From NCBI GenBank assembly GCA_965224245.1, contig OZ245046.1, positions 4,256,001 to 4,320,000 of the forward strand: a DNA stretch of 64,000 nucleotides. Direction: 5' to 3'. Below, one piece after another: positions 12,500 to 44,515 of this stretch. The translations under genes and the position numbers were made by a program. The number at the start of each line of letters is the position of its first letter. The first letter of the stretch is position 1. Source of the stretch: Candidatus Eiseniibacteriota bacterium (lineage in GTDB: Bacteria; Eisenbacteria; RBG-16-71-46; CAZAMP01). The notes below the pieces were generated by a model. That model saw nothing but the letters and a program-made list of their open reading frames with translations. It did not search any database and was not told the DNA's origin.

Positions 12500-12673
12500 C
12501 GTGAGCCGGGTCCTTCCGCTGGACGGGGGACCGGGGAGTATGCCAGGCGTGAGAGGCCACCGAAAGCCCGTCGAGGGCGGGGCCGCGATCGGCGGAGCGA
12601 GGAGTTTGCACGCGCGCGATCGCGCCCCGTAAACTCCGTCCCCACACGTTCCCCGGCGCCAAGGAGTCCTGTC

Positions 12674-22173: not shown

Positions 22174-22309
22174 CCGTCGAGTCGGCCGCCCGCGTCGCGT
22201 CATCGGCGGAACACGCGCTCCGGGCGGAGCGTTCGTGAGCCACGTCGGGTCGGCGCGTACGGCGAGAATCCGATATCATCTCCCGGGCCGAAGACACATC
22301 GAGGACGCC

Positions 22310-24751: not shown

Positions 24752-24929
24752 CTCGAGACCGGCTCGATTGCGCCATCCCGCGGCCGGGCGCCGACGCGCG
24801 ATCATACGGCGTCCGCCACGACCCGAACTATTAGGTGCGCGACGCGGTCGCGTGGCCGTGCCCGGGCCAACCGGGCGCCGCGGGCCCGTGGCCCTCGTCG
24901 CCGAGTCGAGATCCAATCGAGGACCCTGC

Positions 24930-25874: not shown

Positions 25875-25937
25875 CGCGCGGCGACCCACGCTCGGGATCG
25901 AGCCGGATGCTCGACCCGGTCTCCGCAACGTCCTGCT

Positions 25938-27110
25938 CTACGTCGCGCCCTCGGATCGGATGCGGATGCCGTCGGTGTCGGGATCGACGGACATCGTGAC
26001 CCGTCCGTCCAGGAGTCCGATCAGCTCGGCGCCCACGAGATCCTTGCGCCATCCCGACAGCATCGGCAGCCGCGCCGACGCCAGCGTCCCGGCCCGATGG
26101 TGCTCGATCAGCGCGTACAGCTGCGAGCGCGTGCCCAGGTAGGCGGGGCCGATCTCCAGCTCCCGCGCACGCGCCTTCAGGAGCGCCTCCAGGAGATCCA
26201 CTGCCAGCGCGCGGGTGGCGTCCTTCGGCACCGCCTCGATCGGCTCGGGGAGCGCCTCCTCGGGCAGGCGCTGGGCAGTCTCGATGCACGTTCCGATGGC
26301 GGGGCCGAACTGGTCGACGGCACGGGGATGCACGCCGCGCATCTCCACGAGGGCTCGTCGATCTCGTGGCTTCCGGCGGGCGATCGCGGCCAGGACGTCG
26401 TCGGTCAGAATGCGCCCCCGCGGGCGATTGGCGGACTCGGCCTCGGCCTCGCGCCACCGGACGAGCTCGCGCAGGATCGCCAGCTCGCGGCGCGAGAGCT
26501 TCTGCGTGCCCTTGATGCGGCGGTACAGCACGTCCGGGTCACGCCGGTAGTACGCGTGATCGTCGAGCTCGCGCAGCTCCTCGGCCAGCCACCCCCGACG
26601 CCCCCGGGCCTCGAGCGCCTCCTCGAGGCGCCGGTCCAGCTCCTCCAGATGTCGCACGTCGTCCAGCGCGTACTCGACCTGCGTGGCGGACAGCGGTCGC
26701 TGCGACCAGTCCGTGAACGACTCCGCGTGCGGCATGCGCTCGCCCAGCGCGGCCTCCACCAGCTTGGACAGCCCGATCGAATCGCCGTAGCCCAGGAGCG
26801 CCGCCGCCACCTGGGTGTCCACGACGTTTTGCGCCGGCTCGGAGGTCAGGTCGTAGAAGATCATCAGATCCTGACGCCCGGCGTGCACGATCTTGCGAAC
26901 GTCGGGATCGCCGAGGAGCGCCAGGAACGGCGCCAGGTCCACCGCGAACGGATCGACCGCCACGACGTGGCCGCGGCAGGCGACCTGCACGAGGCACAGA
27001 TCGGGCCGGTAGCGCCCCTCGCTGATGAACTCGGTGTCGAAGGCGAAGCGGCCGGCCGCGGCGAGGTCGGCCGCCAGCGCGTCGAGGTCGGCCTGTCGGT
27101 CGATTGGCAA
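25938..27110 (-). CDS. rnd: Ribonuclease D (DEDDy + HRDC)
   Basis: FDTEF, HAGRQD, DTQVAA, TDWSQRPL, YALDDV, HRDC region WRE..A...NRP and GWR. Confidence 0.93.
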   Translation of the reverse strand: MPIDRQADLDALAADLAAAGRFAFDTEFISEGRYRPDLCLVQVACRGHVVAVDPFAVDLAPFLALLGDPDVRKIVHAGRQDLMIFYDLTSEPAQNVVDTQVAAALLGYGDSIGLSKLVEAALGERMPHAESFTDWSQRPLSATQVEYALDDVRHLEELDRRLEEALEARGRRGWLAEELRELDDHAYYRRDPDVLYRRIKGTQKLSRRELAILRELVRWREAEAESANRPRGRILTDDVLAAIARRKPRDRRALVEMRGVHPRAVDQFGPAIGTCIETAQRLPEEALPEPIEAVPKDATRALAVDLLEALLKARARELEIGPAYLGTRSQLYALIEHHRAGTLASARLPMLSGWRKDLVGAELIGLLDGRVTMSVDPDTDGIRIRSEGAT

Positions 27111-27198
27111 GGTGCAGTCCTCGGATGGAGTCGAAGTTGGCCGCCCCGGCCGGCGCCCGCGAGGGCGGGGCGACCTCGACCGGGGCGTGGAGAGTGCG

Positions 27199-30108
27199 CT
27201 AGAACGCCTTCGCTGCGGTCTTGAACGCGACGACGTCGGCGATGGCGGGCTCGATCGGCTCGGACGTCGGAGCCCCGTCGGCGTCGAGGTAGACCGCGAG
27301 CGAGGCGGTCTCGCCGTCGGCGAAGGCGCGCTCGAACGCGTCGGCGACCTGGTCCCTCGTGAGGGTCGTCACCGCCTCGGCCACGCGGTCCTTCCAGTCG
27401 AACGCACCTTCCAGCGCCAGCCCCTCGTAGGCCAGCGTGCTCAGCCGCTCGCTCATGTCGGTGTCCTCTTCGGCCAGGATGGCGAGGATGGCGGCGCGAA
27501 GCCCGTCGAACTCCTCGTCCGTGAGATCCCGGAAGCCCGGCACGAGCGTGTCCAGAAACGTGTGGGCCCGCGTCGCCAGCTCGGTGGCGGGGTACTCCCC
27601 AGACTGGATCAGGAAGTACATGCCGACGCTCCGCGTCTGGAGGCGGGGCCCCGCGAACACGATGTAGCCGAGCTGCTGCTGCGTCCGCATCTCGGCGTAG
27701 AAGCGCGAGTCCACGTACGCGTCGACGTAGCGGAGGACGGCCTCGTTGAGCGTGCTCCGCTCACCGAACTGCACGTAGTCGAGCCAGCAGTTGTTGTCCG
27801 ACTTGGTCGAGAACACGTAGCCGTACTCGCCGGCGTCGAGCATGTTGTCGTTGAGCACCGGGATTCGATCGGCCTCGGCGAGCGTGGCCGAGGACACGGT
27901 CGCGTAGAGATCGTCGAGCGCAGAGCGCAGCGCGCCGCCGTCCAGGTTGCCGTACGCACTGCCCTCGATCGCGCTGGTGGCGAACAGCGTCGACGCGTAG
28001 TCCCTGACCTCGGCGAGCGTCACCGAGTCGATGAGATCCCGGTAGTCACGCCGATGGTGGGCGTGGCTGATCAAGAGGTAGTTGAACTCGTAGAACGTCT
28101 GCTGATACGCCTGGTCGAAGTCGGCGTTCGCGTACGAGCGCGCCAGCTGGTCGGTGATGGCACCGAAGGCGTCCTCGTCGATCGTGATCGTGGTCAGCCG
28201 CTCGCCGACCGCGCGGATCAGATCGGGGATCCGCTGCGAGTATCCGTTCAGCCGGAGGCGGATGCCGCGGGAATCGGCATCCATGTCGATGCCGAGGCCG
28301 GCCTCGGCCACCTGGTACGCCCACTCGTTCCAGCTCTCCTCGACCGCGCGGACGTAGAGCTCGGCCAGGAGACGATCGCGGGCGGTGGAGTTCGTCTCCG
28401 GCGTCTGGAGCAGGATCGACACCCGCGCCTTGGGCACGTCGAACCGCGCGTCCTGCTCGAACCAGAACGTCCCCCGGTGATCGTCGATGATCTCGCGGGG
28501 CGCCTCCTGCGACGGGTCGTCGAGGAGCGTGAGATCGTCGGGGATGAACGGGTTCTTGGCCGGGAACGCCATGTCGTCGGTCGGGCGCGCCGCCGCCCAC
28601 CGCGCGACGACGTCGTCCGCGAACCTGGAGACGCCGTACTCGGCGCCGTAGTACTGCTCGACCTGGTCGGTCTCGACGTCGGGCGCGACCAGGGTCACCC
28701 GGACCCGCTCGGGACGAAGATGGCCCAGGAGGTCGGTGTACGCGGTCGGATCGTACTCGTACAGGAGTCGCTCTCGCTCCTCGAACTCGTCGGCGGGGTA
28801 CTCCTGCATCGACGACGCGTACCCGGAGACGGCCCACCAGCCCTCTTCCGGCTCGCGGTAGAAGTAGTTCAGATCGCTGACGGTCTGCTCGTCGGCGAAG
28901 TAGTACTCCTCCAGCCCCTTCTCGCGCATCAGGCTCAGGTAGGCGAAGGTGAGCTCGAGGACCCGCTCGACGTTCGCGCGGCCCTTCTCGGTCAGCGTGA
29001 TCCCGATGTTGAAGTAGCCGGTGTACGTCTCGCTCCAGCCCGATGCGCCGAGCCCGGTGGCCAGGTTCTCGGTCTTCAGGCGCGACAGGAGCGACCCCTC
29101 GCCCTCGTAGCCCAGGACCGATCCGATCAGCAGATGGGGCTTGGATCGATAGAGGTCGTACAGCGGCGGCGTGGCGAACTCCAGCGTCAGCTGGCGGAGA
29201 TCGGCGATCGGACGCACCTGGATGAGCTGCGGCAGATCGTCCGCGTCGAACACGTCCGACGGGTATTCCGGTCGCTCGAGCCCGCGGTTCGGGATCGGCG
29301 AGAACTTCTCGCGCACCGAGGCTTCGAGCGCGTCGAGCGGCTGGTTGCTCATGACGCAGAGCTTCATCAGGTTCGCCGAGTAGTGCGTCTGATAGAACTC
29401 CATCATCTGATCGCGCGTGACCGACTCCAGCGTCTCCAGGTTGCCGGTCGAGAACCGCTGCCGGGGATGCCCCTCGCGGTGCAGGTAGCGCTGGACCATC
29501 CGCGTGCGCCAACCGTCGTCCTGGATGTTCTTGACGTGTTCGGAGTTGACGGCGTTCATCTCCCGATCGACGTACTCCGCGTCCATCCGGGGCGCGATGA
29601 AGAACTGGGCGAAGCGATCGAGCGCGCCGTCGAACGCGTCGTGGTTGATCTCGAAGAGGTAGTTGGTGTTCTCGCTCGAGGTGTAGGCGTTGTTCGAGCC
29701 GCCGTTCTGGCTGAGGTACTCGTCGTACTCGCCCACGTCGGGATACTTCTCCGTGCCCAGAAACAGCATGTGCTCCAGGAAGTGCGCCATCCCGAGGTGC
29801 TCCCAGGGGTCGGCCAGCGATCCGACGCCCACGTCGAGGGCGGCCGCGGACTTCTGCACCGACGGATCGGAGATCAGGAGCGCGTCGAGCCCGTTGTCGA
29901 GGGTGATGACACGCGTGTTCTCGAAGGCGTTCGGGCGCTCGGCCCGGAAGTCCACCACGGACGTGCGCTCCAGGAGGAGACGCTGAGCGTCGCTGAGCGC
30001 TTCGTCGGCCATGTCCGTGGACCGGACGGCGACGTCCTTCGAGCAGCTGGTGGCGAGCGTGGCGCACGCGAGCGCCAGCCCGGCGCGCCAGAGGAGGCGG
30101 TTGTTCAT
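27199..30108 (-). CDS. Insulinase-family (M16A, pitrilysin-like) zinc protease, predicted lipoprotein
   Basis: Lipobox ATSC, inverted zinc motif HFLEH, NAYTS, and RTQQQLGYIV. Confidence 0.93.
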   Translation of the reverse strand: MNNRLLWRAGLALACATLATSCSKDVAVRSTDMADEALSDAQRLLLERTSVVDFRAERPNAFENTRVITLDNGLDALLISDPSVQKSAAALDVGVGSLADPWEHLGMAHFLEHMLFLGTEKYPDVGEYDEYLSQNGGSNNAYTSSENTNYLFEINHDAFDGALDRFAQFFIAPRMDAEYVDREMNAVNSEHVKNIQDDGWRTRMVQRYLHREGHPRQRFSTGNLETLESVTRDQMMEFYQTHYSANLMKLCVMSNQPLDALEASVREKFSPIPNRGLERPEYPSDVFDADDLPQLIQVRPIADLRQLTLEFATPPLYDLYRSKPHLLIGSVLGYEGEGSLLSRLKTENLATGLGASGWSETYTGYFNIGITLTEKGRANVERVLELTFAYLSLMREKGLEEYYFADEQTVSDLNYFYREPEEGWWAVSGYASSMQEYPADEFEERERLLYEYDPTAYTDLLGHLRPERVRVTLVAPDVETDQVEQYYGAEYGVSRFADDVVARWAAARPTDDMAFPAKNPFIPDDLTLLDDPSQEAPREIIDDHRGTFWFEQDARFDVPKARVSILLQTPETNSTARDRLLAELYVRAVEESWNEWAYQVAEAGLGIDMDADSRGIRLRLNGYSQRIPDLIRAVGERLTTITIDEDAFGAITDQLARSYANADFDQAYQQTFYEFNYLLISHAHHRRDYRDLIDSVTLAEVRDYASTLFATSAIEGSAYGNLDGGALRSALDDLYATVSSATLAEADRIPVLNDNMLDAGEYGYVFSTKSDNNCWLDYVQFGERSTLNEAVLRYVDAYVDSRFYAEMRTQQQLGYIVFAGPRLQTRSVGMYFLIQSGEYPATELATRAHTFLDTLVPGFRDLTDEEFDGLRAAILAILAEEDTDMSERLSTLAYEGLALEGAFDWKDRVAEAVTTLTRDQVADAFERAFADGETASLAVYLDADGAPTSEPIEPAIADVVAFKTAAKAF

Positions 30109-30427
30109 CGTTGGATTCTCCGTCGGAAAGGCAGAACGGCCGTTTTTCAGCGCCCAGAGCCTACATCGTGCCCGTCGGGGCCGAAACGGATTTCGAGAGA
30201 CCGGGAGCGGGGGAATGTCGATGGAGTTACCTCCGCGGCCGCCCCCGGCGTTGCACTTTCTCGGTCCGAGGGCCGATCGGGCGGATCCCGGAGGGCCGGA
30301 ACATCGTATCGTGTACGCGCCCGCGACATCGAAACCGGAGAGCCGGCCCGCGGGTACTCAGGGTCAGCGCCCCGACACGGGACGCGGACGCACCGCGGAC
30401 ACCGCCGAGGGGCCACGGGAGGTCCGG

Positions 30428-31168
30428 ATGACGAAGGTCGACCCCGACAGTCCTCAATTCGCTGAAAACAAGGGACTTGCGCGAACGACCGGACGCGCGA
30501 AACGATTCCTCCGGGAGTGGCTGGTCCCGTTCGCGCTGGTTCTGGCCGTGGTGACGCCGCTCCGGGCGGCGCTGGCCGACTGGTACCACGTGCCGTCGGG
30601 CTCGATGCGGCCGACCATCGTCGAGGGCGATCGGATCTTCGTGGCCAACTGCGCGTTCGGGCTCCGAATCCCGATGACTCGAACCTGGATCGCCCGCTGG
30701 GCGGTGCCCGAGCGCGGCGACGTCGTCACCCTGGCCTCTCCCGAGGACGGCACCCGGCTCGTCAAGCGCGTCATCGGGGTGCCCGGCGATCGCATCGCGC
30801 TCAGGAACAACCGCCTGATCGTGAACGGACACGCCATCGCCTACGTTCCCGAGGGCGAGTCGATCGACTCCCTCCCCGACGGTCGCGACGTCACCGTTCG
30901 CATCGCGACCGAGGAGCTGCCCCACCACGAGCACCGCGTGACGTTCACGCCGGGCTACGGCGCGTTCCGGTCGTTCGGTCCCGTCGTGGTGCCCGACGGT
31001 CAGTACTTCGTGATGGGCGACAACCGCGACCAGAGCTTCGACTCGCGCGGCTTCGGCTTCGTGCCCCTGGAGAACATCTTCGGGCGGTCCAGCCACGTCG
31101 TGCTCTCCGGCGACCCCGATCGGTTCTATCTGCCGCGCATCGATCGGTTCCTGCACCGGCTCGACTGA
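30428..31168 (+). CDS. lepB: Signal peptidase I
   Basis: VPSGSMRPT (Ser), LVKRVIG (Lys) and MGDNRDQSFDSR. Confidence 0.95.
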   Translation: MTKVDPDSPQFAENKGLARTTGRAKRFLREWLVPFALVLAVVTPLRAALADWYHVPSGSMRPTIVEGDRIFVANCAFGLRIPMTRTWIARWAVPERGDVVTLASPEDGTRLVKRVIGVPGDRIALRNNRLIVNGHAIAYVPEGESIDSLPDGRDVTVRIATEELPHHEHRVTFTPGYGAFRSFGPVVVPDGQYFVMGDNRDQSFDSRGFGFVPLENIFGRSSHVVLSGDPDRFYLPRIDRFLHRLD

Positions 31169-31270
31169 CACCGACTCGACGGCGGGATCGGCTCAGGGGC
31201 ATACTCCAGCATCCGCATCCGAGCGTATGTCTCGGCGCGTAGACGTGCACCGAATCGTGGAGGGATCCCC

Positions 31271-32923
31271 GTGAATCAGCATCCCCTCGCCGGCAAGCTC
31301 GCTCCGCCATCCGACCTGGAGGACATTCCAGCGCTGCTGGCCGCCTTCGAGTCGCGACGCCCCGACCCCACTGTCGCCACCGAACGAGTGAGCTTCGGAA
31401 CTTCGGGGCATCGCGGCTCTTCCCTCGACGGCTCTTTCAACGCAGATCACATCCGTGCGATATGCCAGGCGATCGCCGAGCACCGCCGTGCCGACGGCAT
31501 CACGGGTCCCCTGTTCCTCGGCATGGACACGCACGCGCTGTCGAGACCGGCCCGCTGCACCGCCCTCGAGGTGTTCGCCGCCAACGCAATGGAAGTGCGG
31601 TTGGCGCCCGACGAGGGTTTCACACCGACACCCGTGATCTCGCACGCGATCCTGACCCACAATCGTCGGTGCGGGCGCGCGCTCGCCGATGGCGTGATTC
31701 TCACGCCATCGCACAATCCCCCACGCGATGGTGGAATCAAGTACAACCCACCGAGCGGAGGCCCTGCGGACACGACGACGACCGCCGCGATCGAAACCCG
31801 TGCCAATGCTCTTCTCGAGGCCAACCTCGTCGGGGTCGAGTCCGTTCCCTACGAGCGGGCGCTCCGCGCCGTTGGAACGCGTGAGTACGACTACGTGACG
31901 CCGTATGTGAACGATCTCCCGTCAGTGATCGATTTCGATGTGATTAGGACCTCAGGGCTGAGAATCGGCGTCGATCCGATGGGTGGCGCGGGAGTCAGCT
32001 ACTGGCAGCCGGTCGCCGACCGATACGGGCTCCAGATCGACGTCGTGAATCAGCGGATCGATCCCACGTTCGCGTTCATGCACCTGGACAAGGACGGGGC
32101 GATCCGCATGGACTGCTCATCCCCCTGGGCGATGAGTGGCCTCGTCGAGATGCGCAGTCGATTCGACATTGCGTTCGGCAACGATCCCGACGCGGACCGA
32201 CATGGGATCGTGACGCCCTCTGGCCTGATGAACCCCAATCACTTCCTTTCTGTTTGTGTTCAGTATCTCCTCGCCTCCAGACCAGACTGGTCCGGGCTGG
32301 GCACCATCGGCAAGACGCTCGTCTCGAGCTCGATGATCGATCGTGTGGTCCGGGAGGCGGGAAGACCACTCTACGAGGTCCCCGTCGGTTTCAAGTGGTT
32401 CGTCGAGAAGCTCGCTTCCGGCGAGATGGTGTTCGCGGGCGAGGAGAGTGCCGGGGCAACATTCCTTCGCCGCGATGGAAGTGTGTGGAGCACGGACAAG
32501 GATGGGATCCTGCTCAATCTACTCGGCTGCGAGATCACGGCCAGCACGGGCAAGAACCCCGCTCAACACTACTCAGATCTAGAGGAACGCTTTGGCCGCC
32601 CGGTCTACCGACGATCGGACATCCCCGCCACCGCCGAGCAAAAGGCCGCGCTTCGATCGCTTTCGAGTGAGGCGATCTCCGCCGACAAGCTCGCCGGAGA
32701 TCCCGTCAAGGCGATCCACGTGACGGCTCCCGGCAATCGGGCACCGATCGGGGGCGTGAAGGTCGAGAGTGACCGAGGGTGGTTCGCCGCCCGACCCTCA
32801 GGTACGGAGTCCGTTTACAAGGTCTACGCCGAGAGCTTTCGTGGGCAACCGCACCTGGAGGAAATCGAAAGCGAGGCGAGATCGATCATCGAGGCGGCAT
32901 TCCGCCGTGCAGGCATCGACTAG
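31271..32923 (+). CDS. pgm: Phosphoglucomutase (alpha-D-glucose-1,6-bisphosphate-dependent)
   Basis: FGTSGHRGSS, TPSHNPP, DPDADR, GEESAG and RPSGTE; GC is lower than in flanking genes. Confidence 0.95.
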   Translation: MNQHPLAGKLAPPSDLEDIPALLAAFESRRPDPTVATERVSFGTSGHRGSSLDGSFNADHIRAICQAIAEHRRADGITGPLFLGMDTHALSRPARCTALEVFAANAMEVRLAPDEGFTPTPVISHAILTHNRRCGRALADGVILTPSHNPPRDGGIKYNPPSGGPADTTTTAAIETRANALLEANLVGVESVPYERALRAVGTREYDYVTPYVNDLPSVIDFDVIRTSGLRIGVDPMGGAGVSYWQPVADRYGLQIDVVNQRIDPTFAFMHLDKDGAIRMDCSSPWAMSGLVEMRSRFDIAFGNDPDADRHGIVTPSGLMNPNHFLSVCVQYLLASRPDWSGLGTIGKTLVSSSMIDRVVREAGRPLYEVPVGFKWFVEKLASGEMVFAGEESAGATFLRRDGSVWSTDKDGILLNLLGCEITASTGKNPAQHYSDLEERFGRPVYRRSDIPATAEQKAALRSLSSEAISADKLAGDPVKAIHVTAPGNRAPIGGVKVESDRGWFAARPSGTESVYKVYAESFRGQPHLEEIESEARSIIEAAFRRAGID

Positions 32924-34359
32924 AGGTCAAACCGCGTGCCGATCTCGATCTTGCCTCCCTCCGCCGCGCCGTGGAGTGAACGATGCGCCTCTCGCGTCTC
33001 GCTGAGAATTGCCGATCCTGATCGATCGACGTTCTCCAGGTTCAGCTGGGGGTCGAAATCAGCCCAGCACAGGCGAGCGGCGCCGAACGCAGGGGCGTGC
33101 CCGAGCACGTCCCGCCAGACCGGCCTACCGATGGCCGCCGATAGCCCCTCGGCCAGGTCCTTCGATGCACCGCCACCGGTCAGGAGGATCCTGCCTGTCG
33201 CGCCCTGTGGGAACAGAGCCTCGATGTCCTTCAGCTGTCCCGCCAGGTTCAACACCTGATCCAGACGTAGAGCATCCAAGAGGGCCTCGCCATCGACGGT
33301 GTGACGACCGAGGACGCCCGGCGTGACTCGAAACAGAGACTCACGATTCCAGGCAAGGGGGCCGGAGACCAGCCGAAGCGCTTCCGGCACGGCTCGTTTC
33401 GCGGACCACGGCGGAGTGTTCAGCGCTCGGTCACCCGCGCGGCGACATATCCACGCCCGTACATGTCCACTTGCCCCTGCGGACGTCTCGGCCACCCACC
33501 GATCGGTGGCGAGCTCCGACAGCCAGGGGATGGAGTCGCGAGGAGCCGCCGTCGATTGCTGTCCCGACGCGAGCACGTACTGCAGTGGACACGTCGAGCC
33601 TGCAGTGACGACGGCATCGCCAATCCGCGCGCCGACGCCGCGAGTCGCCATCTGGGTGTCGCCACCTCCCACGATCACGGGGATCTCCGTCGTCACGAGA
33701 CGTCTGATCTCGGGCACGATGACCGACCCGGCAACGTCACCAGGATTCCGCAGCGCGCCAATCTCGGGCAGATTCACGAGTCGACCTCCGTGGAAACCGG
33801 AGATCTGGTCGCGATCCTCGAGCGAGTACAGCTGGGCAGATGACAGAATGCTGGGCTCGCAGACCAGTTGGCCGGTCAGCTCGAGCACGATCCAATCGTG
33901 AACGAACGCCAGGTGGCTCGCCCTCGCCCAGGCCGGCGGGTGGTTGTGTGCCAGCCAGAGCAGCTTCAGCAACGTCGAGAACGGGGGCGTCCAGACTCGA
34001 CTCGCCCCCTCATAGTACTCGAGCTCCTGCAAGTGATCGTCGAGAAGCGACTTCCCGCGCGTGTCGAGATTCATCACCCCCTCTGACACGGGCTCATTGC
34101 CGTCGAGCAAGACGAACGCTTGCCGAATCGAGCCCACGACGATGCCATCGATCCGTTCACCACGATCGACAGCCCACGCCACGGCACGCCTCATTGCTTC
34201 GAGAACGATGCGCGACCACTCGGAGGGTTCGAACGAGAGCATCGCCCCTCTCGCCGTGAGCGGCAGGACGTACGACTCACCAGAGACGACTCCATCATGG
34301 GTTATCGCCTGTAGCTTTAGCGCTGAACCGCCGACATCCACGTAGAAGACGACGCTCAT
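32920..34359 (-). CDS. FGGY-family carbohydrate kinase (LsrK/xylulokinase-like, divergent)
   Basis: VDVGGSALK, SIRQAFVLLD...NLDTRG, KLLWL, HDWI, VGGGDTQ, AGST and LTGGGAS. Stop overlaps the pgm stop. Confidence 0.85.
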   Translation of the reverse strand: MSVVFYVDVGGSALKLQAITHDGVVSGESYVLPLTARGAMLSFEPSEWSRIVLEAMRRAVAWAVDRGERIDGIVVGSIRQAFVLLDGNEPVSEGVMNLDTRGKSLLDDHLQELEYYEGASRVWTPPFSTLLKLLWLAHNHPPAWARASHLAFVHDWIVLELTGQLVCEPSILSSAQLYSLEDRDQISGFHGGRLVNLPEIGALRNPGDVAGSVIVPEIRRLVTTEIPVIVGGGDTQMATRGVGARIGDAVVTAGSTCPLQYVLASGQQSTAAPRDSIPWLSELATDRWVAETSAGASGHVRAWICRRAGDRALNTPPWSAKRAVPEALRLVSGPLAWNRESLFRVTPGVLGRHTVDGEALLDALRLDQVLNLAGQLKDIEALFPQGATGRILLTGGGASKDLAEGLSAAIGRPVWRDVLGHAPAFGAARLCWADFDPQLNLENVDRSGSAILSETREAHRSLHGAAEGGKIEIGTRFDL

Positions 34360-35690
34360 GCCGGTGTCGTGGGGTGTGCTCGATCTCGAACTTCTAGGAT
34401 CTGATCGACGATCTCCTGAAAGCTACCGTCCTCGGAGAGAATGTGTGTCGTCATCTCGGGCAAGCTGGCTCGCACACCTCGATCATCATCGCTGTCCCCG
34501 ATGAAATGGCATGCTCCACGATTCAGAACGAGTCTCTGGATCGCGTCCTCGAACATCCCCGCCTTGGGCTTTCGGCAGTTGCACCCCTCGTGCTCGGCGT
34601 GCGTGCAGTAGATGATCCGATCGAAGTAAACCCCATGCTGCCGAAACGCGTTCTTCATTCGCTGAGTGAGCCGTGCGAGCCCGCTCGTCGGCGAGACGCC
34701 GATCGCGACAGAATGCTGGTTACTCACGATCACCAGCCGATAACCTGCCGACGCCAGCCGTTTCAATCCCTCCACGCGACCGGGAAGAACCTCGATATCG
34801 ACCGTGTCGGGATCGTCGAAGTACGACACGTTCTTGATCAACGTGTCGTCACGGTCGAGAAACACTGCCTTCGATCGAGCGATCCCCCGCTCGACCCACT
34901 CGATCTCCCGATCGGCGGCCAACGCCACGTCCCACTCCGCATCGAACCACTTCGACATGGCTTCGAACCATGTCGACCCTTGCGCGACCTTGACGCAGGG
35001 TGAGTCATGCCCCGGCCGCCTGTCGGCAAAGGGAGACACGTACATGGTAGTCGTGCCGCCGAGGAGGTGGAACTGGATCGGCTGCAGCGACCACCTAACC
35101 GAGGCTTGTAGCTCCGCCAGTGACATCAGATGGCGGGTGCAGATCACGATTCGCTCTCGCATGAGACGATACTGCTGATTGGGCTCGGCATCGCAGCGAG
35201 CACGGAGGTGCGGTGATGACGGGTGAGCCAGTAGCACGCGGATCCTGCGTTCACTCTGCTGCACGTTTGCTAGGAGCTCACCCCACTCCTTCGAGGTGAG
35301 GGGGAGTGTGGTGTCCCACTCACCCGAGATCGACGCCAGCCGAAGCGGCCAGCTGCCATCCTGCGCAAACTGCTCAAGCCGACGACGCGCTGTGGAGATC
35401 CGGGCCTCCCGACCCGCCGGGAACCACGTCCGTCTTCCCTCGACGAACTCGAGGTCGGTGACACGGACGCGACGTACCCGGCGACGAAGGAGCAGAGCCA
35501 CCAGGACCAGGACACCGGTCGCGAGGGCGGTCAGCAGGCGCATCGCAGCGCGCTGCTCGCTTGTCCAGTCACTTGCGAACGGGAAAAGGGCGCTGATGTC
35601 GGCGAGCACCGAGTAGTAAGTACCGAAGGAGACGGCGATCGCGGTTATCCAATACGCAGGCGGCAGGACCGCCTTGGAACTAGTCGGCAT
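34356..35690 (-). CDS. 2xTM + DUF5919-like domain + HAD-IIIA (GmhB-type) phosphatase fusion
   Basis: Two N-terminal hydrophobic helices; middle IRVLLAHPSS...MYVSPF...GHDSP...WFDAEWD; C-terminal FLDRDDTL, VSNQ, CTH...CNCRKP and IGDS. Confidence 0.8.
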   Translation of the reverse strand: MPTSSKAVLPPAYWITAIAVSFGTYYSVLADISALFPFASDWTSEQRAAMRLLTALATGVLVLVALLLRRRVRRVRVTDLEFVEGRRTWFPAGREARISTARRRLEQFAQDGSWPLRLASISGEWDTTLPLTSKEWGELLANVQQSERRIRVLLAHPSSPHLRARCDAEPNQQYRLMRERIVICTRHLMSLAELQASVRWSLQPIQFHLLGGTTTMYVSPFADRRPGHDSPCVKVAQGSTWFEAMSKWFDAEWDVALAADREIEWVERGIARSKAVFLDRDDTLIKNVSYFDDPDTVDIEVLPGRVEGLKRLASAGYRLVIVSNQHSVAIGVSPTSGLARLTQRMKNAFRQHGVYFDRIIYCTHAEHEGCNCRKPKAGMFEDAIQRLVLNRGACHFIGDSDDDRGVRASLPEMTTHILSEDGSFQEIVDQILEVRDRAHPTTPA

Positions 35691-35738
35691 CCCTAAACCC
35701 GTCGTGTCGACTGTGCTTGACCACTAGTTTGTCGAGTG

Positions 35739-35766
35739 AGTTTACCGCAGCACTATTCCGGCGCAA
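35739..35766 (-). promoter_or_regulatory. sigma70-like promoter for the HAD/kinase pair
   Basis: Minus strand reads TTGCGC-N16-TAAACT, about 50 nt upstream of ATG 35690. Confidence 0.45.
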
Positions 35767-35910
35767 AGTGACGTCGGGATCCGCTCGAGGCGGGTCGACG
35801 CAGTCGCTGTCAATCGATTCGTCGGCGATGCTTGAGGACGCACCTCCGGCAGGAGCGGATGCGCTCGTTTGGGCGCGCGTCCGTTCAGGCCAGCGGTCCG
35901 CGCCGGAGCT

Positions 35911-36987
35911 TCAGTCCGACGTCCCGGACGCCCCGAACACCGACCGCAGCTGCGTCCAGGACATCCTCGAGATCGGCACCACGGTGTCGTACAGCGTCGT
36001 CCGGTAGTTCAGGAGCACGCATCGCATGCGCTGCGCCTGCTCGGGCGTGAAGTTCGTCATGCAGGTGTCGTCGGAGTAGTCCATGTAGTTGTGGTACGGG
36101 TCCGGGGTCGAGCAGCTCTCCGACGACACGGGGCACCCGAACACCGAGGCCTCCTCGGGGCTCGTGTCGCAGATGCGATCCCCGCTGGAGTAACAGTTGG
36201 GGGGAGCCTCGGCCTGACAGCCGTCCTGGAACGTGTGGAAGAGCCCGAGGTAGTGACCGACCTCGTGCGTGGCCGTGCGGCCCTGCGAGTACGGTCCGCC
36301 GCCGACCGCAGGACGGCCGAAGGCGCTCCACAGGATGACCACGCGATCCTCAGCGGTGCCTCGGCGCGCATCCTGGGGCAGAAACGGCACGTAGCCGAGC
36401 GCCGCCCCGGCCTTCGGATTGAGCGTGTAGATGTTCAGATACTCGTTGGGATCCCACGCGAGCGACGTCCAGTAGTCCCCGTCGTCGTTGAACCAGGTCG
36501 CGTTCGTGGTCCGCGTGATCCCGTTGGTCGGCGAGCCGTCGGGCATCTCGGTGGCGAGCTTGAACGCGATGCGGGTGTCGGTGCCGCCGGCCCCCGGCGT
36601 TCCCGCCATGGCCTGGAAGTCCTCGTTCATCACGTCGATCTGGCTGCGGACCAGCTCGTCGGTCAGGTCGCCCTGACCCATCCCGTTCGCGATGATGTGA
36701 ACGACGACCGGAATCTCGTAGATGTTGCCGGGCAGGTAGGCGTCGTTCAGCGTCGTCGACGTGAGGCTGCAGTCGCTGGGAGGCGTCGCGGCGAGGTCGG
36801 CCGCGTCCAGCTCCGGCGTCGCGCAGCGGCCCCCCACGGCGCGGAACACGTCCGACGCCCAGTAGGCCTCGTAGGTCTCGAATGCCTGTCCCTCGACGAC
36901 CACCGGTGCCTCGGCGGCGGCGAGCGAGGCCGCGGCCAGCGCGACCGGGAGCGGTGCGAGACCTCTCTGCAGCGCGATTCGCTTCAT
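35911..36987 (-). CDS. Secreted M43 (ulilysin/pappalysin-like) zinc metalloprotease
   Basis: Signal peptide, RCAT prodomain Cys, HEVGHYLGLFH, Met-turn NYMDY, and GGAGGAG RBS. Confidence 0.92.
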   Translation of the reverse strand: MKRIALQRGLAPLPVALAAASLAAAEAPVVVEGQAFETYEAYWASDVFRAVGGRCATPELDAADLAATPPSDCSLTSTTLNDAYLPGNIYEIPVVVHIIANGMGQGDLTDELVRSQIDVMNEDFQAMAGTPGAGGTDTRIAFKLATEMPDGSPTNGITRTTNATWFNDDGDYWTSLAWDPNEYLNIYTLNPKAGAALGYVPFLPQDARRGTAEDRVVILWSAFGRPAVGGGPYSQGRTATHEVGHYLGLFHTFQDGCQAEAPPNCYSSGDRICDTSPEEASVFGCPVSSESCSTPDPYHNYMDYSDDTCMTNFTPEQAQRMRCVLLNYRTTLYDTVVPISRMSWTQLRSVFGASGTSD

Positions 36988-37043
36988 GACTCCTCCGTGA
37001 AAGGACCTCCGCCGCGGGCTCGCCCCGGCGACACGTCGATCAA

Positions 37044-37478
37044 CTACTGTTTGTCGGGCGCCGCCGGCGCGTTCTTTCGTCCTTCGCTCTCGCCGGCGAC
37101 GATGGCGCTGGCCTCGATCTCGACCAGGAACTCGGGCGCGACCAGCGCCCGTACGCCGAGCCCGGTGCAGGCCGGACGGACGTCGCCGAACACCGCGGCG
37201 TGGGCGCGCGCGGCCTCGGGCCAGGTCGTCACGTCGGTCAGGTAGATCCGGGTGCGCACGACGTCGGCGAGGCTCGCGCCCGCGGCCGCCAGCGCCGCTC
37301 CGATCGTCGACAGGATGTGGGCGGTCTGCGCGTGCACGTCCCCCGGCCCCACGACGTTCCCGTCGGCGTCGATCGCGACCGTGCCCGACACCTCGACCCA
37401 GGGTCCCACGCGAACCGCTCGCGAGTAGCCCACGATGGACTCCCACGGAGCTCCGGACGAGACGCTGGTTCGCTCCAA
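37044..37478 (-). CDS. RidA/YjgF family protein
   Basis: SSGAPWESIVGYSRAVRVG, VSGT, VVRTRIY, RPA and LVEIEA; TTG start after GGAGG. Confidence 0.92.
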   Translation of the reverse strand: MERTSVSSGAPWESIVGYSRAVRVGPWVEVSGTVAIDADGNVVGPGDVHAQTAHILSTIGAALAAAGASLADVVRTRIYLTDVTTWPEAARAHAAVFGDVRPACTGLGVRALVAPEFLVEIEASAIVAGESEGRKNAPAAPDKQ

Positions 37479-37569
37479 TCGAGACCTCCGGTGAGATCGA
37501 GCGGATTCGGCGACGACCACGTGGTGAACGGGGATCCCCGGGATCCTAGGCGGCCCGATCGCGAGCGCC

Positions 37570-37605
37570 AAACGAAAACGGCCCCGGGGCGAGTGCCCGG
37601 GGCCG
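37570..37605 (-). terminator. Rho-independent terminator downstream of the FlgD-type M43 gene
   Basis: GC stem CGGCCCCGGG/CCCGGGGCCG (37579-37605), followed on the minus strand by TTTTCGTTT. Confidence 0.75.
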
Positions 37606-37630
37606 CGTCGTGTCGAGATCGTGGACGAGG

Positions 37631-38956
37631 CTACTTCATCAGCACCATGCGGCGCGTCAGCGACTGGCCCGCCATGTCCAGGCGATAGAAGTACACGCCT
37701 GTGGCCACCGAGCGCGCCTCGTTGTCGAGACCGTCCCACGTGAACTCGTGCAGACCGGCGTCGAACGAGCCCTCTGCGAGGTCACGGATGACACGACCGT
37801 TCACGTCGAGCACGTGAAGCGCGACCTCGCCCTCGTTCGCGAGGTCGAACGTGATCCGCGTGCGCGGATTGAACGGGTTCGGCTGGTTCTGGTGCAGCGT
37901 GAACAGCTGACCCGAGGACACCACGTCACCGACCGCGACGACGTCGATCACGTCGTACACCGCCGGGCGGTAGTTGATGAGCGCGCAGCGCATCCGGTTG
38001 CACTGCTCGGGCGTGAAGTTGTTCATGCAGGTGTCGTTCGTGTAGTCCATGTAGTTCCGGAACGGATCGATCGTGCCGCAGCTCGAGCCGCCGCAGCTGA
38101 AGCGCGGGTTGGCCTCGGGCTCGGTGTCGCAGATCAGGTCACCGCTCGTGTAGCACGCCGCCGCCGAGCCGCAGCCGCTCTGGAACGTGTGGTAGAGACC
38201 TGCCCAGTGGCCGACCTCGTGCGTGGCGGTCCGGCCCTGGTTGTACGGCGATCCCGGTGAGTCCCGGCCGAAGTACCGCCACCCGATGACGACGCGATCA
38301 GCGATCGCGCCCGCAATACCCGACCACGGGAAGCCCGGGACGTAGCCCAGGATCGACGAGGACCCCTGCGGCGCCCCGAGCGTGTAGATGTTCAGGAATC
38401 GGCTCGTGTCCTGGCCGAGCACGGCGTAGTACCAGCCGCCGGCCCCGGAATCGAACTGGTCGTTGTACCAGTTGTTGTTCGCGGTGCGCGTGATGCCCGT
38501 GGAGGGATTGCCGTTCTCGTCCTCGGTGGCGAGCTTGAAGCGAATCGCGCAGTCGGTTCCCGGCTCGCCCGGCGTGCCCACGAGGGCCTGGAAGTCCTCG
38601 TTGAGGATGTCGATCTGGCTCTGCACCATCGTGTCGGACATGTTTCCGGCACCGCTGGTGGTCGTGATGATGTGCACGAACACCGGGATCTCGTAGATGT
38701 CGACCGGGTTGTACAGGGAGCTGATCACGGTCTGCGAGCCGTTGCAGTCCGACGGCGGCGTGCGCTCGAGATCGTCCAGGGTCGGCGCCGGCGTTCCGCA
38801 GCGATCCCCGCTCAGGCGGAAGGCGTCGGAGGCATGATAGTCGGCCCAGCTGGCGTAGGTGACACCACGCACCTCCACCGGCTCGGCGCCGGCGGTGAGA
38901 GTCTGGAACGCGAGTGCGGCCAGAGCCGCGAGCGCTACGCGCGATTCGATCTTCAT
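37631..38956 (-). CDS. Secreted M43 zinc metalloprotease with C-terminal FlgD-Ig/T9SS-like sorting domain
   Basis: Signal peptide, RCGT, HEVGHWAGLYH and NYMDY; C-terminal NQPNPFNP...WDG...ATGVYFYRL...RMVLMK. Confidence 0.92.
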   Translation of the reverse strand: MKIESRVALAALAALAFQTLTAGAEPVEVRGVTYASWADYHASDAFRLSGDRCGTPAPTLDDLERTPPSDCNGSQTVISSLYNPVDIYEIPVFVHIITTTSGAGNMSDTMVQSQIDILNEDFQALVGTPGEPGTDCAIRFKLATEDENGNPSTGITRTANNNWYNDQFDSGAGGWYYAVLGQDTSRFLNIYTLGAPQGSSSILGYVPGFPWSGIAGAIADRVVIGWRYFGRDSPGSPYNQGRTATHEVGHWAGLYHTFQSGCGSAAACYTSGDLICDTEPEANPRFSCGGSSCGTIDPFRNYMDYTNDTCMNNFTPEQCNRMRCALINYRPAVYDVIDVVAVGDVVSSGQLFTLHQNQPNPFNPRTRITFDLANEGEVALHVLDVNGRVIRDLAEGSFDAGLHEFTWDGLDNEARSVATGVYFYRLDMAGQSLTRRMVLMK

Positions 38957-39210
38957 CGTGCCTCCGTGTAAACGATGGATGCCACTCGAGCCGCGGTTGC
39001 CCTCCGGCAGCATCGAGCAGACTTCGAGATGGGGGATTTGGCTGTCGAGTCCTCGTAACAGGGCCATCAGTTTAGCGGGGAGACGCGCGATCGATCAAGC
39101 GGGATCGACGACAACTGCTTGCAATACGCCACGTTTCGCGATCCAAACCTCGACACGGCGTTCGGGCGAGATCCGCCGAATCGGTGCGCAACCCGATGCC
39201 CGGCGGGGAG

Positions 39211-39239
39211 TTGACGTCACAAAACGCGCACCCTAGACT
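39211..39239 (+). promoter_or_regulatory. sigma70-like promoter
   Basis: TTGACG-N17-TAGACT upstream of the LysM amidase. Confidence 0.6.
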
Positions 39240-39346
39240 GCCGCTCCGGCGTCGCACCACCCCCGACCACGAACGTCGGTTCGCTTCGGCATCGGAGCGG
39301 GCCGGCTCGATTCAACCGGACCCAGGTCCACACGCGGCGAAACGAC

Positions 39347-41554
39347 ATGCACGGTCGCCCGACGAGGTCCCTTGCGCGCCGAGAACGCCCTTGGCGGCGC
39401 CTCGCGTCGCTCGCACTGGCGTCGTGCGCGCTCGTCGTCCCCTGGCCGATCTCCGCCTCGGCAACGGCGCCGCTCGCGGCCGCCGCGACGGCCCACGGCG
39501 CCGCCCCGGCCCAGCACGTCGTGGCCCCCGGAGAGAGCCTCAGCCACCTCGCCGAGCGCTACGGCGTCTCGATCCGGCAGCTCCGCGAGTGGAACGACCT
39601 CGGAAGCGACCTGATCCAGGTCGGCGAGGCGCTCGTCATCGCGCCGCCGCACGCGGAGCCGCCGCCGCTGAGCTTCGAGCGCCCCGGACGGCGCGGCCCG
39701 ACGCCGGCGCGCGGGCGCGCCGACGGAGCGGCAGACCGCGAGCCCGACGAGCCGTTGCCGTCCCGGGACGCCCCCCCGAGCACGTCCGCCTCCCCGGCCC
39801 CCGACGACCGCGACGTCCGGACCACTCACGTCGTCCGGCCCGGCGACACGCTCTCCGAGATCGCGGCGGCCCACGACGTGTCGGTCAGCACGCTGCGCGA
39901 TCTCAATCACATGAGCGGCGATCGGATCTACGTCGGCCAGGTTCTCCGCACGACCGAGACCGACGAGGACACGACCCGGGACCACACGCCGAGCGCGGAG
40001 TACATCGTGCAGCGAGGCGACACGCTCTCGGAGATCGCCCAGCGCTTCGGCGTGTCGATGAGCCTCCTGCGCGGCGCCAACGACCTCGCCGGAGACACCA
40101 TCGTGCCCGGCCAGCGGCTCCGGCTCACCCCCAGCGCGTCGGACGCGACCGTCGTGCACGTCGTGCGGCCGGGCGAATCGCTGTCGGCGATCGGCCAGCG
40201 CTACGGCGTCCGGGTCTCCGAGCTCCAGCGATTGAACGGCCTCCGGGGCTCGCGCATCTACGCCGGCCAGCGACTGCGTCTGCGGGCGACGCCGCGCGCG
40301 ACCCACGTCGTGGAGCGGGGCGATGCGCTGTGGGAGATCGCCGCCGCCTACGGCATGACCGTGACCGAGCTCGAGGCCCTGAACGGGCTCACGTCCAGCC
40401 GCATCTATCCCGGGCAGGTGTTGCAGCTCTCCGAGAGCGGCGCCAGCGCGACCGACACGTACGTGGTCAAGCGCGGCGATTCGCTGAGCGAGATCGCGCT
40501 CCTGCACCAGATGAGCCTCTCGGAGCTGATGGCGGCCAACCGCCTGACGTCGACCACGATCCATCCGGGACAGTCGCTCGAGGTACGTCCGCTCCTGCGG
40601 GGAGCCCGCGGCCAGGGCCCCACGCTGGAGAACGTCGTCTGGTCGCGGCTCGGCACCGACGTGGCCGGCTTCCGTCACATCGCGGCGGAGAACGGGCCGT
40701 ACCTGGGCCACCGTCCCCGGGCGGCCTACCAGCGGAGCAAGGGCTATCTGGAGGAGAGCGGCGTCGGACCCTGGACCGCCTACCGGCGAGCCTCGACGCT
40801 CCTGGCCGCCTTCGACGCCGAGGTCGACCGCATGCCCCGGCTCAGCAATCGCCTGGCGGGATGGCACATCGTGCTCGACCCCGGGCACGGGGGCATCGAC
40901 CCCGGGACCATCTCGAAGGTGCTGGACGGACGCGGCGACCCGGTGTTCGTCGTCGAGGACGAGTACGTCTACGACATCACCCTACGCATGTACGTGCTCC
41001 TGCGGCTGCACGGCGCCGACGTGACGCTGACGCTCTTGAGCCCCAATCACCTGATCCGCGCGTCCAATCCGGCCACGCGTACGTTCGTGCACGAGCGGAA
41101 CGAGGTATACAACGACCGCGAGCACAACCGGCGGAACGGTCCGGCACAGTGGCCGCGCGGCGGTCAGGCGGGGCTCGACGCGCGGATCGACGTCGCAAGA
41201 GCCGCGTTCGCGGGCGCCCGGCAGTCCAGGCGGCTGTTCCTGTCGATCCACGCCGACAACAGCCCCGGCACGCCGAACGTACCCCTGATCCTCTACTACG
41301 CGAGCCGTTCCCGGACCGACGGTCGCTCGCGGGGCTTCGCGAGGGCACTCCTGCCGTCGCTCGGCGCCGGTGCCCAGATGCGGGGACAGAACCTCGGCGT
41401 CCTCCGCCACAACCCCGCCGACTTCAAGCTGCTGGTCGAGGTCCGGAACGTGGCCTACGCGGACGAGGCGTGGTGCCTGCGCTTCGAGGAGCTGCGCCAG
41501 CGGGACGCCGAAAAAGTCGTTCGAGGGGTGCTCAACACCGTCAAGTCCCTGTAG
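39347..41554 (+). CDS. N-acetylmuramoyl-L-alanine amidase (Amidase_3) with six LysM repeats
   Basis: Six (H/Y)(V/I)VxxG(D/E)xL LysM units, then LDPGHGG, a conserved Glu, SIHAD and LVEV. Confidence 0.9.
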   Translation: MHGRPTRSLARRERPWRRLASLALASCALVVPWPISASATAPLAAAATAHGAAPAQHVVAPGESLSHLAERYGVSIRQLREWNDLGSDLIQVGEALVIAPPHAEPPPLSFERPGRRGPTPARGRADGAADREPDEPLPSRDAPPSTSASPAPDDRDVRTTHVVRPGDTLSEIAAAHDVSVSTLRDLNHMSGDRIYVGQVLRTTETDEDTTRDHTPSAEYIVQRGDTLSEIAQRFGVSMSLLRGANDLAGDTIVPGQRLRLTPSASDATVVHVVRPGESLSAIGQRYGVRVSELQRLNGLRGSRIYAGQRLRLRATPRATHVVERGDALWEIAAAYGMTVTELEALNGLTSSRIYPGQVLQLSESGASATDTYVVKRGDSLSEIALLHQMSLSELMAANRLTSTTIHPGQSLEVRPLLRGARGQGPTLENVVWSRLGTDVAGFRHIAAENGPYLGHRPRAAYQRSKGYLEESGVGPWTAYRRASTLLAAFDAEVDRMPRLSNRLAGWHIVLDPGHGGIDPGTISKVLDGRGDPVFVVEDEYVYDITLRMYVLLRLHGADVTLTLLSPNHLIRASNPATRTFVHERNEVYNDREHNRRNGPAQWPRGGQAGLDARIDVARAAFAGARQSRRLFLSIHADNSPGTPNVPLILYYASRSRTDGRSRGFARALLPSLGAGAQMRGQNLGVLRHNPADFKLLVEVRNVAYADEAWCLRFEELRQRDAEKVVRGVLNTVKSL

Positions 41555-44241: not shown

Positions 44242-44515
44242 AGGCAACTCCTCGTGGCCGGATCCGCCGCACCTATAAGCCAGTTCCTACACGATCGCAA
44301 GTGCCGGCCAGCCCGGCCACCCGCGGACGGCCTCCGTCCAGGTTTTCGGCCGGGCGTTCGATGAGGGGACGTGGCCGGTGACGGCTCCGGGCCCGGACGC
44401 GCGGGCGGGGGGATTGGCAGCTTCTGCCGATCCATGAGACAGTTACCCGCTTCGAACGAGCCTGCATCCCGAGATGAGTCGAGTCTCCGCGCCCCGTGGC
44501 GCGAGGAGGTCTTTC

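Follow-up and report, generated by a model that had tools for sequence, protein, structure and literature searches.

A phosphoglucomutase gene converging on a two-gene operon for an FGGY kinase and a membrane-anchored PLD-fold/HAD phosphatase fusion in a low-GC segment of a Candidatus Eiseniibacteriota genome

Introduction

Do adjacent genes that share an unusually low GC content, and whose products all belong to families acting on sugar phosphates, form one functional unit? We address this question for a locus in a stretch of 64,000 nucleotides of a Candidatus Eiseniibacteriota bacterium (assembly GCA_965224245.1, contig OZ245046.1, forward-strand positions 4,256,001 to 4,320,000), which we refer to in its entirety as the window. 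The locus encodes a phosphoglucomutase (pgm), an FGGY-family sugar kinase, and a membrane protein in which a domain with a phospholipase D (PLD) superfamily fold is fused to a phosphatase domain of the haloacid dehalogenase (HAD) superfamily (table 1). An earlier note on this DNA had read the three genes as one acquired module of kinase, mutase, and phosphatase that produces or removes a sugar (bis)phosphate signal or drains a metabolite, possibly for defense or stress. We instead lean, with moderate confidence, toward two convergent units: a normal pgm gene and a horizontally acquired, coupled operon whose products would work as a short phosphosugar pathway at the face of the membrane. Within this explanation, we infer the horizontal origin, how the fusion sits in the membrane, ligand binding by the PLD-fold domain, and the logic of the pathway.

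Two Convergent Units in a GC-Poor Segment

The fusion and kinase genes are a two-gene, translationally coupled operon, and pgm converges on them from the opposite strand as a separate transcription unit. The TGA stop codon of the fusion gene overlaps the ATG start codon of the kinase gene as ATGA (TCAT on the + strand, 34356–34359), and the stop codons of the kinase and pgm genes share the palindrome CTAG (32920–32923); both overlaps are present as the earlier note described them. Because the two units converge, pgm is not co-transcribed with the operon.

The drop in GC content that first set these genes apart is real. Three 60-nucleotide counts on which it was based are exact (30/60 at 32221–32280 and 31/60 at 34381–34440 versus 46/60 at 30541–30600), and both sliding GC and the GC content of third codon positions (GC3) agree with it. 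Only five of the 1066 60-nucleotide lines of the window contain 31 or fewer G+C, and four of the five lie inside 31921–35760. The GC content is 63.3% for 31200–35880 versus 69.5% across the window, which sits on a 6.45-Mb contig of an assembly of 6.94 Mb and 69.1% GC. A 4.5-kb window covering the three genes has 63.4% GC versus a contig mean of 69.1% (standard deviation 2.0), and 4.5-kb windows this GC-poor make up the lowest 1.1% and fall into 22 regions of the contig. Measured from stop to stop, the GC3 values of pgm, the kinase, and the fusion are 0.753, 0.732, and 0.736, respectively, which places the three genes at about the 1st to 5th percentile of the genome (reference set of 2796 coding-like long open reading frames with a median of 0.869 and 5th, 2nd, and 1st percentiles of 0.763, 0.736, and 0.724); the flanking genes on either side have values of 0.81–0.94. 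Atypical composition, a criterion for genomic islands, is found in this segment. The assembled contigs of three runs of one sample each cover 30600–36400 unbroken and with zero differences, so an assembly join does not account for it (in this comparison, small joints with 20-letter sides were disregarded as stray matches). All four runs that contain the stretch come from this one sample of one study, probably the source of the assembly, with no RNA run listed among them, and are no independent evidence of occurrence or expression.

A Fusion of a Membrane Anchor, a PLD-Fold Domain, and a Phosphatase

The fusion protein begins, in its AlphaFold2 (AF2) model, with two long helices that are followed by the string RRRVRRVR. 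Based on the positive-inside rule, this region would form a hairpin in the inner membrane with both ends in the cytoplasm.

The middle domain, modeled alone with the family alignment, has an AF2 pLDDT of 92.3 and, as modeled, is a PLD-superfamily fold. Structure comparison with VIA-align matches it to the nuclease domain of SauUSI (Z 10.8, rmsd 3.6, 150 residues aligned), the sugar-binding domain of TrmB (2f5t, Z 10.1, rmsd 2.9, 129 residues aligned), NucT (Z 10.0), Nuc (Z 9.8), and Zucchini (Z 8.7–8.9), with NgoAVII also among the matches. The top 16 chains have Z scores of 8.3–10.8, ranks 1–28 are by our reading all PLD-superfamily folds, and the ranks down to Z 5 are PLD-fold proteins as judged by their titles. 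Foldseek returned 11 matches at E ≤ 1e-3, the best of which is TrmBL2 (E 2.7e-5), and the ten listed are chains of TrmBL2, NucT, SauUSI, and Zucchini. At the level of sequence, none of 16 family members matches any Pfam family over this domain, and the domain has no sequence match in the PDB. DUF5919, an initial guess for this domain that ESM Atlas gave for 21% of one cluster (score 0.91), was rejected, as no member matches it in Pfam; a literature search found no paper on DUF5919 and none joining TrmB, phospholipase D, and a sugar-binding domain.

The active-site motif of the PLD superfamily is incomplete in this family. Among 12 aligned members, the histidine of the HKD motif (His208, presumably on the HKD strand, judging by the order of secondary-structure elements) is kept in 11, the +2 position, where the motif has its lysine, is occupied by Leu, Val, Ile, or Phe in all 12, and no conserved Asp follows. 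Given that the lysine and the aspartate are absent in 12 of 12 members, nuclease chemistry is not expected. Further conserved polar residues (Asp126, His156, Glu169, Thr185, Arg199, His228, and Glu262) point to a family-specific binding or catalytic site.

The C-terminal domain exceeds the cut-offs of two HAD-IIIA subfamily models (TIGR01656, 104.6 vs. 84.15; TIGR01662, 87.7 vs. 44.6) and contains the motifs DRDDT (residues 279–283), SNQ, a Cys/His loop of the form CxH...CxCRKP, and GDSDDD. Its closest structural matches in VIA-align are Escherichia coli GmhB (2gmw, Z 19.1) and the N-terminal domain of HisB (HisB-N; 2fpr, Z 17.9). These features identify the domain as a HAD-IIIA phosphatase of the GmhB/HisB-N type, and one that looks catalytically intact. 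The domain is below the cut-offs of the GmhB models (NF006506, 109.8 vs. 178; TIGR00213, 78.9 vs. 149.6; NF050049, 60.4 vs. 250) and of the HisB-N equivalog-domain model (TIGR01261, 73.8 vs. 140), and the earlier label of a bisphosphate-type phosphatase does not survive the GmhB cut-offs. The genome also contains a separate, stand-alone GmhB-like gene. Promiscuity between heptose bisphosphate and histidinol phosphate is reported for members of this HAD group (PMC9798254), and homology therefore does not give the substrate.

This combination of domains could also be read as a system for processing nucleic acid ends, in which a Tdp1/Nuc-like PLD-fold domain and a 3'-phosphatase like that of polynucleotide kinase/phosphatase (PNKP) would act next to the kinase. 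Nucleases (SauUSI, NucT, Nuc, and NgoAVII) account for many of the best matches of the PLD-fold domain, the best Pfam match of the HAD domain is PNK3P (E 1.3e-8), and polynucleotide kinase/phosphatase structures also match it (3zvl, Z 14.2). However, the NCBIfam models for GmhB and HisB-N match the HAD domain with E values of 1e-31 to 1e-20, far above the DNA 3'-phosphatase model (E 1e-5), the HKD motif is not kept, a membrane anchor would be odd for such a role, and the adjacent kinase belongs to the FGGY sugar kinases and not to the P-loop polynucleotide kinases. We consider this possibility most improbable, close to negligible.

A second alternative places the operon in lipid metabolism: the PLD-fold domain would transfer a phosphatidyl or similar group to a polyol phosphate made by the kinase, and the HAD domain would then remove the phosphate. 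The PGP and PIP synthase–phosphatase routes likewise consist of a transfer step followed by removal of a phosphate. The membrane anchor immediately precedes the PLD-fold domain, the order of the domains suits transfer with subsequent dephosphorylation, the genome has no FGGY kinase besides this one, and the structural matches include phosphatidylserine synthase, cardiolipin-type PLDs, and MITD1 (Z 6.7–9.1). Nevertheless, we regard a head-group module as very unlikely: the HKD motif is reduced to its histidine, there is a single PLD-fold domain and not two, no PLD family of Pfam matches in the 16 members, and nucleases and the TrmB sensor domain, not lipid enzymes, head the list of structural matches.

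Distribution of the Fusion Family

An exhaustive HMMER search of 1.84 billion representative proteins with the PLD-fold part recovered 18 proteins at E ≤ 1e-3, including the query; one of these (P0022), a 1519-residue Calx-beta repeat protein, was judged a chance hit and omitted from the family alignments. HAD-type Pfam domains are found in 11 of 18 relatives (the 17 other hits and P0004), and the fusion therefore recurs. Most members have 420–450 residues with the parts in the same order, and two stop after the PLD-fold part. By these comparisons the fusion is a small but real family, previously undescribed and without a Pfam family, with fewer than 20 representatives among 1.84 billion proteins. 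Every member comes from contigs of metagenomes or metagenome-assembled genomes. The closest homolog (P0004) is 51% identical over its full length and is encoded on a 5.3-kb contig; the contigs of other members measure 56 kb (P0017), 39 kb (P0010), 25 kb (P0014), 16 kb (P0013, in NCBI), 15 kb (P0015), and 5.1 kb (P0008). In one full-length member (P0009) the nucleophile motif of the HAD domain is degenerate (DHALL instead of DRDDT) and the PLD-fold part is kept; the PLD-fold part may be the core of the function of the family.

We compared the locus with a phylum set of 206 genomes that includes that of the window, one genome of the same family, and others that share only the class. Outside the window's own genome, the PLD-fold part is without a credible match in this set (three weak hits of 17–21.5 bits, one with stop codons, in 205 genomes). 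Searches of samples of 401, 401, and 391 genomes from three further phyla did not recover it, nor did searches of plasmid records, where only the HAD part matched, or of viral contigs. Among metagenome contigs, the family alignment found nothing and another member (P0010) used as the query found only generic HAD genes, with 19 loci matching residues 245–404; among genome contigs, patterns in the HAD domain found 80 generic GmhB-like loci. When the PLD-fold profile was compared with 142 collected loci, only the window's own locus matched.

A Divergent FGGY Kinase

The N-terminal half of the kinase matches FGGY_N (PF00370) with 66.3 bits (cut-off 28.8; model positions 3–243 of 245), and the C-terminal half (residues 241–479) matches no Pfam model even at E 10. 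The latter half contains the sequence TGGGASKD...GRPV, and the neighbors of the kinase in the ESM Atlas are FGGY_N/FGGY_C_2 clusters. The strings DVGGSALK, GGGDTQ, and TGGGASKD are visible in the sequence, and we take them to be the FGGY phosphate, catalytic, and ATP motifs; judged by these strings, the ATP and catalytic motifs look intact. The FGGY family includes glycerol kinase.

The earlier note assigned the three genes to their families correctly (pgm, FGGY kinase, and membrane HAD fusion) and called the kinase LsrK-like. The autoinducer-2 (AI-2) kinase LsrK is its closest solved structure (5ya0, 51 bits, E 7e-13, residues 42–255), and that is the extent of the relationship: the kinase is below all NCBIfam equivalog cut-offs, and the best model, the AI-2 kinase NF008187, reaches 79.9 bits versus a cut-off of 528 and aligns only residues 43–256. 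As a functional label, LsrK-like is therefore not tenable. A word-based search of 5.8 billion protein clusters, which left out fragments shorter than 263 residues, recovered three weak relatives with 26–32% identity. The kinase is the only FGGY_N match of its genome (68.5 bits in the genome scan); an FGGY gene is present in 29 of 60 relatives (with genome G083 counted), mostly with 214–243 bits, and given this difference the kinase is not the usual FGGY kinase of the phylum. Searched with the kinase itself, the other 205 phylum genomes gave only two weak hits (25.3 and 19 bits), and plasmid records gave at most 25.5% identity.

The Phosphoglucomutase Gene and the Three-Gene Reading

The pgm product matches the equivalog model TIGR01132 with 830.7 bits (cut-off 778.05; model positions 3–545 of 546), exceeds the cut-offs of the four PGM/PMM domains I–IV (PF02878, PF02879, PF02880, and PF00408), and contains the sequence TPSHNP, presumably the phosphoserine loop. 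On the strength of these matches, pgm is an ordinary alpha-D-glucose-1,6-bisphosphate-dependent phosphoglucomutase. The check for a second native pgm that the earlier note had called for found none of the same class: pgm is the only TIGR01132-type gene in the genome and is most likely the working mutase of the cell for glucose 1-phosphate and glucose 6-phosphate. Two other genes of the PGM superfamily are present, one of which is of the Arch_GlmM type (499 bits vs. a cut-off of 439). The other, PGM/PMM-like gene (G000:C1:6009400–6011370) is below every NCBIfam equivalog cut-off and lies in a stop-free frame of 1323 codons, the upstream part of which is rich in Arg and Gly.

The history of pgm is less clear than its identity. 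Its product is 61–65% identical to those of pgm genes across many phyla in a flat plateau with a best match anywhere of 65%, and this type of pgm occurs in 19 of the 205 other phylum genomes, with 55–64% identity. In a quick tree it branches apart from the cluster that the pgm genes of the phylum form; in a careful tree of 47 rows it (P0001) is part of an unresolved polytomy with a terminal branch of 0.62 versus a median of 0.22. An approximately unbiased (AU) test did not reject a single clade of this gene and the pgm genes of the phylum (p 0.705); the likelihood is in fact higher for the tree constrained in this way.

The reading of the locus as one acquired module of three genes draws on the low GC3 common to all three, the overlapping stop codons of pgm and the kinase gene, the fact that all three families act on sugar phosphates, the patchy occurrence of this pgm type in the phylum, and its long branch. 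We give this reading very little credence, for pgm is convergent with the operon, ordinary, above its equivalog cut-off, and the only one of its class, and the AU test does not reject its grouping with the pgm genes of the phylum. In addition, all 19 pgm loci of the phylum lack, within ±1.5 kb, any homolog of the two operon genes or of the flanking peptidases.

The proposed role of the module in defense or signaling fares no better. No PADLOC-DB 2.0 family matches any of the three proteins at E ≤ 0.1, and no system-specific hit occurs in the seven surrounding genes (24534–41551). Across 30 other proteins of the window, the hits are confined to widely shared domains (Ser/Thr kinase, helix–turn–helix [HTH], receiver, and exonuclease/HRDC): a neighboring response regulator matches one PD-T4-6 model with 25.8 bits over its receiver domain, and an RNase D-like neighbor matches the ends of the BrxH and DpdF models over the shared exonuclease and HRDC domains. 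A literature search found no paper linking FGGY with anti-phage activity. There is no support for a defense role.

Origin of the Operon

The operon was likely acquired horizontally, based on its atypical composition, its absence from the rest of the phylum, and its scattered and rare relatives. The suggestion of horizontal transfer in the earlier note thus stands for the kinase and fusion genes, which are rare and have no credible match in the phylum, and does not extend to pgm, for which the trees agree on no single placement.

Several observations weigh against the reading of two units, one of them acquired. There is no tRNA gene in the window; as the earlier note also had it, no integrase domain is found in 12 scanned neighbor genes and no flanking repeat exceeds chance-size matches. 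Given that the set contains only one relative of the same family, absence from relatives is weak evidence for recent transfer. The neighboring M16 peptidase has only partial matches of 27–30% identity in 3 of 12 relatives, and no neighborhood recognizably like this one occurs in the genome of the same family. Finally, pgm shares the low GC3 of the operon, which leaves room for a common origin and a functional link.

These observations bear on another alternative, namely that the genes are native and that their low GC content reflects local variation or fast evolution rather than transfer. The lack of mobility marks and the thin sampling of the phylum are compatible with it, pgm may belong with the other pgm genes of the phylum, and 22 regions of the contig are equally GC-poor. 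Against it stand three adjacent genes at about the 1st to 5th percentile of GC3, a kinase and a fusion without a credible match in the other 205 phylum genomes, and relatives of the fusion that are scattered metagenome proteins of very different amino acid composition. We regard native genes as unlikely, although not strikingly so.

The assembly also contains 26 small contigs (C2–C27, 2.8–74 kb), all but one of which have 57–66% GC versus 69% for the main contig. These values are close to that of the low-GC segment, and the contigs may represent plasmids, mobile elements, or mis-binned DNA.

A Proposed Phosphosugar Pathway at the Membrane Face

Based on the domain assignments, we hypothesize that the fusion protein would sit in the inner membrane by way of its two-helix hairpin with both other domains in the cytoplasm, and that the FGGY kinase would phosphorylate a hydroxyl group of a sugar or polyol with ATP. 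The PLD-fold domain would bind a substrate or a phosphate-bearing ligand, by analogy with the sugar-binding domain of TrmB, and would not cleave phosphodiesters. The HAD domain would take a phosphomonoester off a phosphosugar at the face of the inner membrane. The kinase and the HAD domain would thereby serve separate steps or positions of a single short pathway, without a futile cycle. In the recycling of N-acetylmuramic acid (MurNAc) by AnmK, MupP, and AmgK, the kinase and the HAD phosphatase each have their own position as target; a pair of this kind therefore need not be a futile cycle.

We are cautious about this proposal for three reasons. Encoded in one operon, the kinase and the phosphatase might do no more than oppose each other. 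Although a 51%-identical fusion exists, the word-based search with the kinase, which covered proteins of at least 263 residues, returned no ortholog above 32% identity, a hint that the pairing of kinase and fusion is not conserved. The degenerate DHALL motif of P0009 means that phosphatase activity would not be universal in the family.

In a variant of the pathway that we consider quite unlikely, the PLD-fold domain, with its conserved His/Arg cluster, would capture a phosphorylated sugar or a lipid-linked head group and hand it to the HAD domain, the kinase would make the phosphorylated species, the pair would thus make or reset a phosphosugar used as a signal or an envelope precursor, and pgm would feed or drain the pool.

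Each part of the locus comes from a well-known enzyme superfamily, so that no new kind of system is at hand, but the combination is unusual. Should the kinase and the fusion prove to be a conserved module, they would constitute a new small pathway for phosphosugars or head groups and would provide, after TrmB, the second case of a PLD fold that binds rather than cuts; otherwise, the locus is one more acquired operon. The present result corrects an attractive yet unsupported reading of three genes as a defense module.

Features of the Locus and Its Neighborhood

Table 1. Coordinates of the genes, protein domains, and upstream region of the locus, numbered from the first nucleotide of the window (aa, amino acid residues).
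Feature	Position	Strand	Basis
pgm, 550 aa, GTG start, GGAGGG 8 nt upstream	31271..32923	+	TIGR01132, four PGM_PMM Pfam domains
FGGY-family sugar kinase, 479 aa, operon gene 2	32920..34359	-	FGGY_N match
Membrane-anchored PLD-fold/HAD-IIIA phosphatase fusion, 444 aa, operon gene 1	34356..35690	-	
Two predicted membrane helices, aa 11–33 and 44–79, then Arg-rich RRRVRRVR	35454..35660	-	AF2 model, sequence
PLD-superfamily-fold domain, aa 80–270	34881..35453	-	AF2 model, structure comparison
HAD-IIIA phosphatase domain, GmhB/HisB-N group, aa 272–438	34377..34877	-	TIGR01656, TIGR01662, VIA-align
220-bp spacer upstream of the operon, presumed promoter region, includes one of the lowest-GC 60-nt lines of the window	35691..35910	-	

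A scan with the sigma-70 consensus found no promoter-like site, the spacer upstream of the operon included. A terminator scan found four terminator-like sites (2.5 expected), none of which lies where the two units converge or between the operon and the adjacent M43 peptidase gene, and no Rfam family matches in 29000–40000 at E ≤ 0.1.

The seven neighbors (24534–41551) encode M16, S26, and two M43 peptidases, a LysM amidase, an RNase D-like protein, and a response regulator. The M43 (pappalysin-like) peptidase genes are in tandem (35914–37446 and 37634–39067, both on the - strand), directly upstream of the operon on the same strand, and their products are 54% identical. A strong terminator-like hairpin lies between them (37606–37578), and the copy nearer the operon has a somewhat low GC3 of 0.81. 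The C-terminal ~90 residues of the other copy (37634–39067) form a FlgD_ig-like domain that recurs at the ends of many large proteins, with at least 124 matches across its own genome and 4 of the 12 relatives searched; it looks like a phylum-wide sorting or secretion tag. The LysM amidase (39347–41551, + strand, 735 residues) has six LysM repeats and an N-acetylmuramoyl-L-alanine amidase domain, is encoded ~3.7 kb from the operon, and could tie the neighborhood to cell-wall turnover.

Farther away, a protein of 1294 residues (9776–13657, - strand) strongly matches the PADLOC Ser/Thr kinase models PD-T4-6, mad6, and MkoA over residues ~445–705; this is a widely shared kinase domain, encoded 18 kb from the operon segment. 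The gene at 22115–23062 (+ strand) joins an HTH_17 helix–turn–helix domain to a PTS EIIA-2 domain in a regulator-like architecture, and the gene at 44474–45919 (+ strand), which adjoins a sodium:solute symporter gene (42757–44247), encodes a FAD-linked oxidase with a cytokinin-dehydrogenase-type binding domain (PF09265).

Comparison with Known Systems

The pgm product does not differ in function from the phosphoglucomutase of the E. coli type, which it matches at full length and above the equivalog cut-off; its peculiarities are a GC3 that is low for the genome and a long branch in the tree. The kinase shares the N-terminal domain of FGGY kinases, with LsrK as its best sequence match in the PDB, and differs from them in its best identity of 32% and in a C-terminal half that is silent in Pfam. 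Unlike the setting of LsrK, its own includes no lsr-type transporter, isomerase, or thiolase domain in the 12 scanned neighbor genes. The phosphatase domain resembles GmhB and HisB-N in its HAD-IIIA fold, in its set of motifs with the Cys/His loop, and in the subfamily-domain models that it passes, whereas it follows a membrane anchor and a PLD-fold domain in one fused protein and is under all equivalog cut-offs.

For the PLD-fold domain, the single-HKD nucleases of the PLD superfamily (Nuc, NucT, Zucchini, and the nuclease domain of SauUSI) share the fold, but the fusion family is without the Lys and Asp of the HxK(x)4D motif. The non-catalytic PLD-fold domains of archaeal TrmB (sugar-binding domain) and of TrmBL2 (C-terminal domain) are likewise top structural matches, and TrmB lacks the HKD motif, much as the fusion lacks a full one. 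They have no sequence similarity to the domain of the fusion and differ from it in architecture, as the domain of TrmB and TrmBL2 follows a DNA-binding domain and that of the fusion lies after a membrane hairpin and before a phosphatase. The fusion family further differs in its near-invariant histidine at the HKD position and in its conserved His156, Arg199, His228, Asp126, and Glu169.

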